Under the pieces are notes generated by a model that was not told the origin of the DNA, made no database searches, and saw only the letters and a list, made by a program, of their open reading frames with translations. From Escherichia phage AV108, in the sequence record OR352938.1: a stretch of 64,000 nt of DNA; one strand, 5' to 3'. Below are positions 26,217 to 40,248 of the stretch, piece after piece; position 1 is the stretch's first letter; each line of letters begins with the position of its first letter. A program made the position numbers and the translations under genes.

Positions 26217-26407
26217 AGATGACTCCAATATAATCGACATTTACATTTAGGGCAATGCGGTTCTTTAATATAATACCCGTCTGTCTTTGGAACACTAACA
26301 GGAGCGGTTTTTATATTGTATTCAGTGAAACAACGAAAACAAGTTACGTTTTCTACAGACTGACGTTTCACCCAATCACCGGAATATAGATCATTTTTAT
26401 TTGTCAT
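26213..26407 (-). CDS. zinc-ribbon protein (~64 aa)
   Basis: ORF track 26213..26443; ATG at 26407; CFRC...CPKCKC. Confidence 0.45.
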   Translation of the reverse strand: MTNKNDLYSGDWVKRQSVENVTCFRCFTEYNIKTAPVSVPKTDGYYIKEPHCPKCKCRLYWSHL

Positions 26408-26852
26408 ATTCAACCACCACAATGTTAATGTCTGGAGTAGCAATATTAATAATCTCTTCTACACACTCCCACTCAAGGCCACCGATACCGCAACCGATTT
26501 TAGGAATATAGAAAGGCTGTATAGCACCCTCAAAAACATCATTGAGAGACTCAAATCCTTTCAGGATAGCACCATATTCAGCATTTGGACCCGGTCGGAA
26601 TTGGGTATAGAGATTCACCCCGCACCAGTTATAACCATTAACTTGATGCGTCCAGATACTAAACCCACCCAGCTTTTCTACCTTACCGCGAGAAGTTTGC
26701 TTGTCAATCTCTAACGCTTGCGGGAACTCTTTCGCGATCTTTGCAGCAATACCAGCACCCATAGTATGAAAACAATTACAACCATGAATTAAATGACCGT
26801 TTCCTTGTTTAAACAGGGCGATGAGATCGCCCTTTACAGTATCAATAATCAT
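26397..26852 (-). CDS. macrodomain protein, TARG1/OARD1/DarG-like (ADP-ribose binding or hydrolase)
   Basis: 151 aa; VKGDLIALFKQGNGHLIHGCNCFHTMGAGIAAKIAKEF and PKIGCGIGGLEWECVEEI match the TARG1-type signatures (VKGDLFA..LAHCIS..MGAGIA..F and PRIGCGLDRLQWENV) as recalled. Confidence 0.75.
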   Translation of the reverse strand: MIIDTVKGDLIALFKQGNGHLIHGCNCFHTMGAGIAAKIAKEFPQALEIDKQTSRGKVEKLGGFSIWTHQVNGYNWCGVNLYTQFRPGPNAEYGAILKGFESLNDVFEGAIQPFYIPKIGCGIGGLEWECVEEIINIATPDINIVVVEYDK

Positions 26853-35685: not shown

Positions 35686-35832
35686 GGGAAGGTAGCGAAT
35701 CTTCCTTGTCTCCAACCTGCTAGCGGCCTAGCAAGTTAATGCTTTAGCGTACCGGATCGCCCACATACGCTGTAATAAATGCGGCTAGGTGACGTCCAAA
35801 TCATTCTAACCGCGCTGTCTTTAGTTCACTAT
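35686..35832 (-). ncRNA. candidate small non-coding RNA (between a TATAAATA motif and a terminator; no ORF)
   Basis: ~150 nt minus-strand interval with internal hairpins (TGCTAG-gccg-CTAGCA; GGAAG..CTTCC) and no plausible ORF with an RBS; bounded by late-promoter-like TATAAATA (35833-35840) and the terminator at 35658-35685. Confidence 0.3.
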
Positions 35833-36050
35833 TATTTATATCGCTTTCTCTCGCGACGTTTTTGATCTTCTTCCTTGATAGAGTTAAATGCATCAAAAAG
35901 ACACATGACACTAATAATAAACATAACCGTATTTTCTACGATATCCCACGGCTTCGCATCAGTACAGATCCCCCAAACGGTAAGAAATGCAAATAAGGCA
36001 GAAGAGATCACAAGCAGGATACTTGCTAAGATATAAAAAGTCATTTTCAT
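35832..36050 (-). CDS. small membrane protein (72 aa)
   Basis: Two hydrophobic helices; basic C-terminal tail QKRRERKRYK. Confidence 0.45.
   Translation of the reverse strand: MKMTFYILASILLVISSALFAFLTVWGICTDAKPWDIVENTVMFIISVMCLFDAFNSIKEEDQKRRERKRYK
35833..35840 (-). promoter_or_regulatory. T4-type late promoter motif TATAAATA
   Basis: Plus-strand tatttata, i.e. TATAAATA on minus, overlapping the stop of 35832..36050 and facing the ORF-free gap. Confidence 0.35.
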
Positions 36051-36241
36051 GGTTTTACCTCAATTCTTCGATATTCATCACACATCCACGCAGTAAGCAA
36101 GAATCCCAACACATAAGCAACAAAATACGTTAATGCTTCTTCTGGTTCGGTGCTATGCGCCATCATCAGACCAGCGAGAAAGGTCTTAACAATTACATTT
36201 AAAATAATTAGCCACGCAAATAATTTCATCGTTTGCCCCAT
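36047..36241 (-). CDS. small membrane protein (64 aa)
   Basis: Two hydrophobic helices; stop/start overlap with neighbours. Confidence 0.45.
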   Translation of the reverse strand: MGQTMKLFAWLIILNVIVKTFLAGLMMAHSTEPEEALTYFVAYVLGFLLTAWMCDEYRRIEVKP

Positions 36242-36465
36242 TTCGGTCGAGTCTTTTCAAACTTATACATTCCGTAACAATCTCGAATCATCCACGTAAC
36301 AAGAGCACCAGTCAACACAGACAATACACAGAAGAAGTAAAACGGTCCGGTTGCATTATCAACATGAGCAAGCCAGGTAAAGAAAACACATGCAAGGAAT
36401 GTAAAGAACATCATAAAGCACAAGAAAGCGAAATATTTTATACTACTCATAGCGCCACCATACAA
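36226..36465 (-). CDS. small membrane protein (79 aa)
   Basis: Two hydrophobic helices; basic C-terminus. Confidence 0.45.
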   Translation of the reverse strand: MYGGAMSSIKYFAFLCFMMFFTFLACVFFTWLAHVDNATGPFYFFCVLSVLTGALVTWMIRDCYGMYKFEKTRPKWGKR

Positions 36466-36739
36466 CAGATCATAAGAAACCCCAACGCAATAAGAATTGC
36501 GTCAAATTTAGTGAACTCCGGTCCACCTATCAACATCATTCGTTCCTGTTCATTCATAGATCACAGAGCCATCTGAAAGCACCACATAAAGCGAGCAGAA
36601 TACTAGGTATAAACGAGACTAAAACAAGTTGGCAAAAATCATCTAAGGTAACACCGGAATAGCTACCTACTGTAACAACACCGATCATCAGACACAGAAA
36701 GAAAACAAATGCAATCAGAAACAAAGTATTGCTAAACAG

Positions 36740-36943
36740 TTAGTGATCATTAGACACCCCACGACGATCAATTTCAAAAACTTTTTTATCATCAACGAAG
36801 CATGTCACAACTGCCTCGTTGACTTCCGCAAATTGTTGTGTTACCCACTTAAGGTCAGAGCGAAACAATGTTCTATTAATAACAAATGTTTTACCGCTCT
36901 TATCCTTACCCATAAATTTTGCTTTAACCATATCCAATTCCAT
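36740..36943 (-). CDS. hypothetical early protein (67 aa)
   Basis: ORF track. Confidence 0.4.
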   Translation of the reverse strand: MELDMVKAKFMGKDKSGKTFVINRTLFRSDLKWVTQQFAEVNEAVVTCFVDDKKVFEIDRRGVSNDH

Positions 36944-36952
36944 ATTATCACC

Positions 36953-37111
36953 TTATTTGCTAATCGCTAAACCCAATCCGAAGAGAGCACCCGATGCTAC
37001 AGTATACCCGAAAGTTTCAAAGGCAGTAAAGATATCTAAGCCACCAGCTAACAGAGTTGCAGTAAACAGAGTACCAGCTACGAACATAAAAGTTTTACCG
37101 ATAAATTTCAT
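36953..37111 (-). CDS. small hydrophobic peptide (~52 aa; coordinates approximate)
   Basis: Hand translation MKFIGKTFMFVAGTLFTATLLAGGLDIFTAFETFGYTVASGALFGLGLAISK; ATG directly follows the aggagaatcaaa leader. Confidence 0.4.
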   Translation of the reverse strand: MKFIGKTFMFVAGTLFTATLLAGGLDIFTAFETFGYTVASGALFGLGLAISK

Positions 37112-37177: not shown

Positions 37178-37552
37178 TTAAGAAAATTTTACTTCGTCTA
37201 CAATGTCTTTCATGACATTGATTTCCATTCCGGTCAGAACACGTTGGAACATGTGCTGCACATACGCTTTCAGGTATTCATTTGATGGCTTACTATCGAA
37301 AGTCTTTTTAGTGTAGTAGTCATCACCGAAAGCTACTGTAATTACATTTTCGTCGTCGTTCCAAGCGATATAAGCAAATTTGCCGTTATCCCAGAAGCGA
37401 GCACTAATTGCTACTTTTGTTGAATCGAATCCTACTTCGCTGTGAGATTCAAGAACTACTTGCGTGCCAGTTTCTTTATGAATGTAGTAGCGGGATACTA
37501 AGTCAAAGTTACGGGTGTAGTGACATTCGAATTTATCTTTAAACATCATCAT
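37178..37552 (-). CDS. hypothetical early protein (~125 aa)
   Basis: ORF track 37178..37621; ATG triplet (MMM) at 37552 directly follows aggagaatcaaa leader. Confidence 0.5.
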   Translation of the reverse strand: MMMFKDKFECHYTRNFDLVSRYYIHKETGTQVVLESHSEVGFDSTKVAISARFWDNGKFAYIAWNDDENVITVAFGDDYYTKKTFDSKPSNEYLKAYVQHMFQRVLTGMEINVMKDIVDEVKFS

Positions 37553-37624: not shown

Positions 37625-37655
37625 AAAACAAAAAACCCCGAAAATTTTTCGGGGT
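37625..37655 (-). terminator. rho-independent terminator after 57B
   Basis: Minus strand ccccgaaaaattttcgggg hairpin followed by ttttttg. Confidence 0.6.
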
Positions 37656-37661
37656 ATAAAA

Positions 37662-38132
37662 TTACAGTTTGGTCGTCCACTCCAGGTCTAGATCTTCGAC
37701 ATACTCATGAGATCGGACAATCTCTAAATCGAACTCTAGGTCAGTGCCAAATTTACGCGCACCAACATCATAAGAAAGCGTGATATGCGGTACATATTCA
37801 GGATAATCCCACGTCGCACCTAAAGCAGTGCCGATATCGTGTCTGAATTGCATGTAGTCGCTTTCAAATGCCAACACAAGTGCATTAGTACCGGATTGAG
37901 TTTCAAACACTTTCAGATGACACAGAGAGCCTAAGAACTTCTCCCCTTCTTCTGGGATAAACGGAACATAGACACGAGAATATAAGATAGTGCTATGCAG
38001 TTTATCACGAGGAACGGCATTAGGCAGATCGTAGAACTCCTGCAATTTTTCAATGCGGTCTAGTGTATCCTCAGTGAATTTAACCGCCGCATATGTACCT
38101 TTAACGGATTCTCTAAACGGGGTCATAATCAA
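37662..38132 (-). CDS. 57B: 2H-phosphoesterase (LigT-like), T4 gp57B/Acb1-type
   Basis: 156 aa with two H-x-T/S motifs (HSTIL, HITLS) typical of the 2H fold; sits upstream of 57A and gene 1 as T4 57B does. Confidence 0.7.
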   Translation of the reverse strand: MIMTPFRESVKGTYAAVKFTEDTLDRIEKLQEFYDLPNAVPRDKLHSTILYSRVYVPFIPEEGEKFLGSLCHLKVFETQSGTNALVLAFESDYMQFRHDIGTALGATWDYPEYVPHITLSYDVGARKFGTDLEFDLEIVRSHEYVEDLDLEWTTKL

Positions 38133-38395
38133 GCCTCCGTGATCAGTTCTACTTCCTCTTCTGCGTCTTCCGCTGCTTCGTCTTTAGGGAGAAGTGCTTT
38201 CACTTCTTCGACAATAGCATCAAGGGAAACAGTCCCGTTTTCGTCTGGCTGAATACCCAGAATGCGTACCAGTTCCATCAATACACGCTCACGATCTTTC
38301 AGTTGGCCTTCTAAGAATGCGGCCTTTTCTTGAGTGTCAAACAGACGTACTTTCAGGACATTAATCATTTGTTCATGCTGATTGGACATATTCAC
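38129..38395 (-). CDS. 57A: tail-fibre assembly chaperone gp57A-like
   Basis: 88 aa coiled-coil protein with acidic C-terminus (DEAAEDAEEEVELITEA), adjacent to gene 1; resembles T4 gp57A. Confidence 0.6.
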   Translation of the reverse strand: MNMSNQHEQMINVLKVRLFDTQEKAAFLEGQLKDRERVLMELVRILGIQPDENGTVSLDAIVEEVKALLPKDEAAEDAEEEVELITEA

Positions 38396-38421: not shown

Positions 38422-39078
38422 TTAAATGTTCGCGAGAATCGCGCTTTCAAATTCTTCTAATGTACCATTATTTATGATAATGGTTTCACCGTCAATAGGC
38501 AAAATTCCTTTTTCGGTGGAGTGAGTCGATACAATACCAGTATCACGCTGAATATGCAACACCTTAGCACCCATAGCACGCATGAGAGCAATTTCAATAG
38601 GCTGACGCACATCAACCACTACAAAATAACCTTCTTCATTTTTGCGCTTCATAAACTCATTCACGAAGAGATTACACCAATAAAGCGGATTGATCAAGTT
38701 AACCATTATATCAGTACCGAGAGTGGTTAACATGAGACGAATAGACCAGACGTTATTATGTTTTTCGCCGATCTCATTAACGACCTTGTAAATCTCAGCC
38801 AGACAATCACAAGTAAAGGAACTACCGCCATACTTCGAATCTAGCATAAGCAGACACTGAATAAACCACTTATGCGCGGTATAGGTATCAATACCTAGAT
38901 CGGCTTCTCTGTCACGCCCTAACCCGTCAAAGTCAAGATAAGTCAGACCTAAGTCTGGTTGGCATTCGCACAATATTTCTTTGATCGGTGCTGCCAGTTG
39001 ATAACTATGTCCATCAATGATTAACGCGGCAGTGTCTTTTCCTACTCGCTTTTTACCACAAAGTGCAATCAATTTCAT
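38422..39078 (-). CDS. 1: deoxynucleoside monophosphate kinase (gp1)
   Basis: 218 aa; N-terminal P-loop LCGKKRVGKDT; position between 57A and gene 3 as in T4. Confidence 0.8.
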   Translation of the reverse strand: MKLIALCGKKRVGKDTAALIIDGHSYQLAAPIKEILCECQPDLGLTYLDFDGLGRDREADLGIDTYTAHKWFIQCLLMLDSKYGGSSFTCDCLAEIYKVVNEIGEKHNNVWSIRLMLTTLGTDIMVNLINPLYWCNLFVNEFMKRKNEEGYFVVVDVRQPIEIALMRAMGAKVLHIQRDTGIVSTHSTEKGILPIDGETIIINNGTLEEFESAILANI

Positions 39079-39714: not shown

Positions 39715-40248
39715 CTAAAAATTTAAACTAGCATAATCTCCAAAATGTTCCTTTGCTGCTTCGTCATAAGCCTTTGCAGCATCAACTTCGTCAAGAAAGA
39801 CGCCCAAATGGACCTTTCTACGATTGATTGATATCTGAGCACACCATTTGTTATTCTGTGTTCTAATCACTCCTTTATACTTACTCTTACAACCATCAAG
39901 TTTTCCGCGATTGAACGCATTTTCCTGAGAAGTGGATTCTCTCAAGTTATCCGGTGCATTATTTTCTCGGTTTCTATCTACATGGTCGATCATTTTAACT
40001 TGCGTACCATGTTCAAGATACCAAACAACCCTATGAACTTTAATGACCAAAGAATAGCCATCACTGCGCCAAAACTTAAAACATAGATAACCTCGACTAT
40101 TTTTATAAACTTTAACCGGGTCTCCTGCCTTATACCATCGACCATTCTTTCCACTATCTTTCAAATGATACAATATACCATTAACGTGTTTATACTTATC
40201 TCTAATTTCTTTTTGTGTAAAATCATCCCACATCTTAAAACCAGACAT
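39715..40248 (-). CDS. HNH homing endonuclease with C-terminal AP2 DNA-binding domain
   Basis: MIDHVDRNRENNAPDNLRESTSQENAFN (HNH) and YKGVIRTQNNKWCAQISINRRKVHLGVFLDEVDAAKAYDEAAKEHFG (AP2-like); inserted between gene 3 and gene 2. Confidence 0.75.
   Translation of the reverse strand: MSGFKMWDDFTQKEIRDKYKHVNGILYHLKDSGKNGRWYKAGDPVKVYKNSRGYLCFKFWRSDGYSLVIKVHRVVWYLEHGTQVKMIDHVDRNRENNAPDNLRESTSQENAFNRGKLDGCKSKYKGVIRTQNNKWCAQISINRRKVHLGVFLDEVDAAKAYDEAAKEHFGDYASLNF

Follow-up and report, generated by a model that had tools for sequence, protein, structure and literature searches.

The minus-strand gene at 37662-38126 of the window, by which we mean the whole 64,000-nt stretch of Escherichia phage AV108 DNA that was analysed (OR352938.1), very probably codes for the T4 Acb1 (gp57B) orthologue of Krischvirus, a 2H phosphoesterase predicted to cleave CBASS signals. 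This gene is referred to as acb1 in the following. Across the 2.8 kb around acb1, 58 phage records match with 98-99% identity. They all belong to the RB49/JSE/Phi1 group, and judged from these matches the window is DNA of a Krischvirus (Straboviridae) of the RB49/JSE type. In contrast to T4, this phage is placed outside the Tevenvirinae in the record taxonomy.

The protein matches the Pfam family Acb1 (PF23474) with 174.4 bits (E=1.5e-51; gathering score 27) over profile positions 1-143 of 144. Among solved structures it matches only the Acb1 of Erwinia phage FBB1 (7T26, apo; 7T27, with 3'3'-cGAMP), which is the closest characterised sequence, with 53% identity across residues 10-153 (7T26, E=1.8e-43) and a single two-residue gap. 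T4 Acb1 (NP_049750.1; sequence taken from NC_000866), the founding anti-CBASS nuclease (PMC9117128), is 47% identical over the full length in BLASTP (E=3e-47), and the two proteins are of similar size (154 aa here, 152 aa in T4). Thus the Acb1-like 2H phosphoesterase of the original prediction is recovered as an orthologue of T4 gp57B. No NCBIfam model matched the protein. A single-sequence AlphaFold2 model reached a pLDDT of 37.5, which is too low for use; due to the 53% identity to the solved structure 7T26 over 144 residues, the C-terminus included, we infer a 2H phosphoesterase fold that is compact and has a C-terminal lid. The gene and its functional elements are located as follows.

37662-38126, minus strand: coding sequence of acb1 (gene 57B), encoding 154 aa and ending with TAA at 37664-37662; matches to Pfam, PDB, and the T4, RB49, JSE, and Phi1 proteins
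37989-37997, minus strand: first catalytic motif H44-S45-T46 (T4 H44/T46); H44 and T46 invariant in the alignment
37779-37787, minus strand: second catalytic motif H114-I115-T116 (T4 H113/T115); H114 and T116 invariant in the alignment
37665-37688, minus strand: C-terminal lid, about residues 147-154, with the invariant W150 (T4 W147)

T4 gene 57B encodes Acb1, an enzyme with a 2H phosphoesterase fold and a C-terminal lid (Hobbs et al. 2022, PMC9117128). Its HxT/HxT tetrad consists of H44, T46, H113, and T115, the aromatics Y12, W74, F107, and W147 stack on the bases, E141 contacts the adenine N6, and the H44A/H113A mutant is catalytically inactive (PMC9117128). The window protein was compared to T4 and FBB1 Acb1 in a three-way alignment, with the published residue numbers read as T4 numbering. 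Both H-x-T/S motifs named in the original prediction, which had proposed an alignment to T4 Acb1 as a check, were retained in this alignment with their catalytic His/Thr pairs and the contact residues, and both were also confirmed at codon level in the DNA. Of the nine functional residues named in PMC9117128, seven are identical (Y12, H44, T46, H113, T115, E141, and W147 in T4 numbering), and the remaining two are aromatic-for-aromatic replacements, F74 for T4 W74 and Y108 for T4 F107, with F and Y also occurring in FBB1 Acb1. The set of base-stacking aromatics hence reads Y12, F74, Y108, and W150, and the invariant E144 (T4 E141) is located just upstream of the lid segment. Apart from substitutions, only length differences were observed: compared with T4 and FBB1 alike, the window protein carries a two-residue insertion at 131-132 (within the 129-133 region), and compared with T4 it has an additional residue at 81. 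Due to the identity of 47-53%, this insertion, and the F/Y pair in place of T4 W74/F107, the quantitative specificity could differ from that of the characterised enzymes.

The original prediction had given the gene as 37662-38132. This is a genuine minus-strand open reading frame of 156 aa in the mechanical ORF list, with TTG at 38132 as first possible start, and its extent as an ORF stands; its start does not, since the coding sequence most likely begins with the ATG at 38126-38124, 6 nt inside the TTG, as read from the sequence. The TTG overlaps the stop codon of the upstream gene 57A (TGA, 38131-38129), a GGAGG motif at 38138-38134 is situated 7 nt before the ATG, and all annotated relatives use the equivalent ATG. 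The neighbouring features are listed below.

39684-39094, minus strand: gene 3, tail completion
39078-38422, minus strand: gene 1, dNMP kinase
38467-38495, minus strand: sigma-70-like promoter candidate (TTGACG, 17 nt, AATAAT; 10/12 matches, by consensus match only), within gene 1 at its 3' end
38129-38389, minus strand: gene 57A, tail-fibre assembly chaperone, directly upstream of acb1 (Pfam GP57, E=2.6e-6; phrog_1002, E=2.1e-26)
38134-38138, minus strand: ribosome-binding site GGAGG within the last codons of 57A, read from sequence
37635-37655, minus strand: intrinsic-terminator-like hairpin ACCCCGAAAAATTTTCGGGGT followed by the T-run TTTTTGTTTT, beginning 7 nt beyond the stop codon of acb1
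37618-37590, minus strand: sigma-70 promoter (11/12, consensus match) of the next gene downstream of acb1
36740-36943, minus strand: homologue of Dmd, discriminator of mRNA degradation (Pfam PF17587, E=7.6e-16; phrog_2102, E=1.1e-31)

Since the ribosome-binding site lies inside the end of 57A and the 57A stop codon ends 2 nt ahead of the acb1 ATG, translational coupling of 57A and acb1 is likely; the coding sequences of the two T4 genes share an overlap of 4 nt. The 57A-57B transcription unit ends at the terminator-like hairpin, and a terminator is annotated at the equivalent place in relatives. Together with the promoter predicted for the next gene, this makes acb1 the last cistron of its unit, which could be driven by the promoter candidate at 38495-38467. 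The transcripts of T4 acb1 and acb2 were reported to be predominantly middle/late. For timing, the T4 late-promoter motif TATAAATA is uninformative: it is absent from the minus strand at 35.9-64 kb, and its four occurrences in the window compare with six expected by chance.

The gene order 3, 1, 57A, 57B on the minus strand is that of T4, as established from Pfam and PHROG matches of the neighbours and from the annotations of T4, JSE, RB49, and Phi1; 57A is so annotated in JSE, RB49, and Phi1. Thus acb1 occupies the slot following 3-1-57A, in agreement with the T4 57B position originally assigned to it. The region downstream of acb1 differs from T4. Where T4 carries ipI, the window contains a 124-aa gene; small membrane proteins and dmd come after it.

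acb1 was found in all 58 Krischvirus records, with a protein identity of at least 99% in 55 of them. The 57B proteins of RB49, JSE, Phi1, Ec_Makalu_001, and LF73P4 match the window protein at 100% identity, and SSG23 57B deviates in two residues. The DNA diverges by approximately 2-3% between these phages, with almost exclusively silent changes. For eight intact alleles, 21 of the 25 variable nucleotides are located at third codon positions, only three amino-acid sites vary, and pairwise dN/dS ranges from 0 to 0.09. The gene is under strong purifying selection within the genus, which argues for a working acb1. A scan of IMG/VR returned 11 related loci, three of them Krischvirus-like.

An aberrant allele occurs in vB_Eco_TB34 (OX001802.1; locus L016, 1201-1673). 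Its frame is broken by two 1-nt insertions at separate sites, the first following codon 22 and the second in a CCTGG site near codon 147, and together they disrupt both the N-terminus and the lid. The allele is either a natural loss of function, like that known for Bas43 under pressure from Panoptes, or the product of a sequencing error.

The gp57B of T4 was identified as the cGAMP-degrading activity of infected lysates, FBB1 Acb1 was crystallised with 3'3'-cGAMP bound, and all nine further homologues tested by Hobbs et al. cleaved both 3'3'-cGAMP and cAAA (PMC9117128). The activity expected of a family member is metal-independent and directed 3' of adenosine in 3'3'-cGAMP, cUA, cAAA, and cAAG, with cGG and cA4 left uncut; degradation of cA3 and 2'3'-c-di-AMP by Acb1 is described as well. 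In a CBASS-carrying host T4 acb1 becomes conditionally needed, and protection from CBASS by Acb1 was demonstrated for T4. Conversely, Panoptes types I and II are triggered by Acb1, and T4-like phages escape by acb1 inactivation.

By analogy to these enzymes we infer the activity, the substrate range, and an anti-CBASS effect in vivo for the window protein. As for the T4 and FBB1 enzymes, its ligands would be CBASS signals of the cyclic di- and trinucleotide type with at least one adenosine, such as 3'3'-cGAMP, cUA, cAAA, and cAAG. Y12, F74, Y108, and W150 are expected to stack on the bases beneath the C-terminal lid, and E144 to read the adenine N6. The tetrad H44/T46 and H114/T116 would then cut the 3'-5' bond 3' of adenosine via a 2',3'-cyclic phosphate intermediate, a cleavage that should be metal-independent in this small enzyme. 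The signal would be linearised before activation of the CBASS effector, and abortive infection would thus be prevented. As in T4-like phages, the same activity should expose the phage to Panoptes guards, which fire on degradation of a decoy cyclic nucleotide.

Within the 2H superfamily the protein might instead be a LigT-like 2'-5' RNA ligase or a 2',3'-cyclic phosphodiesterase of RNA repair, acting on RNA ends, e.g., in tRNA repair with PseT and RnlA. The protein is a member of phrog_755, with the legacy label "RNA ligase", and 57B carries the same name in the RefSeq entries of T4, JSE, and RB49. Moreover, LigT and other 2H phosphoesterases of the 2'-5' RNA ligase type share with Acb1 the fold and the paired H-x-T/S motifs, and Pfam 2_5_RNA_ligase2 (PF13563) gives a weak match (E=0.0011). 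However, this match is partial (residues 70-126 only) and with 19.4 bits remains below the gathering score of 27, in contrast to the full-length match of the Acb1 model. LigT-type enzymes lack the lid and the base-stacking set of Acb1, whereas the window protein retains the stacking aromatics, the lid Trp, and the Glu that reads adenine. The name was given at the level of the fold and predates the work on Acb1, and T4 gp57B itself, which bears it, accounts for the cGAMP degradation in lysates. Such an RNA-directed function is therefore very improbable. Somewhat less remote, though still quite unlikely, is an enzyme of Acb1 fold with a main target other than CBASS or with shifted substrates, e.g., cA3 of type III CRISPR-Cas or other adenosine-containing cyclic signals. 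The degradation of cA3 and 2'3'-c-di-AMP by Acb1 is compatible with such a shift, as are F74 and Y108, which deviate from the T4 stacking residues, and the two-residue insertion; Acb1 may also carry a broader load, since a T4-type Acb2 was found neither in the window nor in JSE. F74 and Y108 are, however, the residues of the FBB1 enzyme crystallised with 3'3'-cGAMP, each homologue tested so far cut both cGAMP and cAAA, and the sequence gives no sign of a new specificity.

The third reading, an inactive or decaying remnant that is retained for its location inside the 57A operon, has a practically negligible probability. Natural loss-of-function alleles of acb1 are known from T4-like phages, e.g., Bas43, and the broken frame of TB34 may be taken as a further case; in the window, on the other hand, the frame is intact, all catalytic and contact residues are present, and the near-identity of the protein persists despite the divergence of the DNA. 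A decaying acb1 is excluded by the selection analysis. A functional Acb1 orthologue hence remains the preferred interpretation of the gene.

Other phage proteins that remove nucleotide immune signals serve the same purpose by different means. Acb2 (T4 Vs.4) and Acb4 are sponges of unrelated folds that act by sequestration, and the anti-Pycsar protein Apyc1 is a Zn-dependent phosphodiesterase of the MBL fold. In tblastn searches with T4 Vs.3, Vs.4 (Acb2), Vs.5, and IPI, nothing was obtained at E<=1 in the window, where such single-sequence searches could miss a very divergent Acb2. Likewise, the four queries gave only chance-level matches across the whole JSE genome (searched as loci L023, L003, L001, L024, and L025), with no homologue of T4 Acb2 (Vs.4) or IPI at E<=1; in this genome Acb1 was found at 1e-40 by the same search, and a divergent sponge could again be missed. 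Krischvirus may therefore carry Acb1 without a T4-type Acb2 sponge. Due to the lack of a detectable T4-type Acb2 in the window and in the JSE genome, it is tempting to speculate that Acb1 is the sole tool of Krischvirus against cyclic-oligonucleotide signals and at the same time its Achilles heel towards Panoptes-type guards, with the TB34 allele as a natural escape, although we regard this scenario as rather improbable. As a variant of this reading, three small Cys/His paralogues may represent a non-homologous replacement of Acb2 in the vs.3-vs.5 slot. These paralogues (28338-28673, 28735-28995, and 28977-29171, minus strand; phrog_6261 and phrog_15978) have a C-x-H-L-(x3-4)-W motif in common and are located between regB and nrdC.11, i.e., at the place of T4 vs.3, vs.4 (Acb2), and vs.5. 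They matched no Pfam family and showed no similarity to T4 Vs.4.

The window protein is already known, since it is deposited as gp57B of RB49, JSE, and Phi1, and its family is defined experimentally, structurally, and in Pfam. Hobbs et al. counted 273 phage homologues of Acb1 (PMC9117128), and the window protein is expected to be among them because a BLAST search with T4 Acb1 would find it at 47% identity. The RB49-like phage vB_EcoM-G2494, whose Acb1 differs from the window protein by one residue (D129N), was among the phages of the Hobbs lysate screen. Our literature search for Acb1 together with Krischvirus retrieved no report and no activity data for any Krischvirus allele; in combination with RB49, JSE, Bas46, or Bas47, it retrieved only a paper on Panoptes, which names T4 57B and MM02 gp156 as Acb1. 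MM02 is not contained in the 58 records matching at DNA level and was thus not taken as the same lineage. In most of these 58 genome records acb1 is labelled "RNA ligase" or "hypothetical protein", and the value of the present assignment lies mostly in the correct annotation of gene 57B. For phage therapy and the prediction of host ranges, the intact and strongly conserved Acb1 leads to the prediction that RB49-type phages, which appear to be devoid of a T4-type Acb2, are resistant to CBASS of the cGAMP/cA3 type and sensitive to Panoptes.

Contrary to the original prediction, acb1 shares the window with a second gene that has an established homologue in anti-defence. The Dmd homologue is encoded approximately 0.7 kb downstream of acb1 on the same strand and carries the name dmd in the RB49, JSE, and Phi1 annotations. 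In T4, Dmd is the antitoxin that neutralises the toxins RnlA and LsoA. T4 dmd is located elsewhere, and the RB49 annotation note gives 61.5 as gene synonym. A small anti-defence cluster in T4, with ipI following 57B, was noted by Hobbs et al. (PMC9117128), and the region 3' of acb1 resembles this cluster with a different content. The 124-aa gene of unknown function in the slot of T4 ipI (37178-37552, minus strand; phrog_15253) is, by its position, a candidate anti-defence gene. It is preceded by the strong sigma-70 promoter of its own listed above and by an AGGAG ribosome-binding site; its sole Pfam match, to T4 Gp30.7, is sub-threshold (E=0.004), and a search against PDB gave matches at chance level only.

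Around dmd, from the 124-aa gene to the next block, a series of very small ORFs (36-79 aa; 35832-37111, minus strand), hydrophobic by eye, is kept as hypothetical proteins in JSE, RB49, and Phi1. One of these (36953-37111) belongs to phrog_16462, a family of unknown function. On the other side of the locus, a homing endonuclease with HNH and AP2 domains is situated just upstream of gene 3 (39715-40248, minus strand; Pfam HNH_3, E=2.8e-13; phrog_99, E=5.9e-46). The corresponding place in JSE is occupied by a different "endonuclease" of 380 aa and a small plus-strand ORF, which suggests that the set of homing endonucleases between genes 2 and 3 is variable. Further away, a Tk.4-type macro-domain protein is encoded at 26397-26852 on the minus strand (Pfam Macro, E=6e-7; phrog_335, "phosphatase"). 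Since ADP-ribosylation can be undone by macro domains, a counter-defence role of this protein is conceivable.
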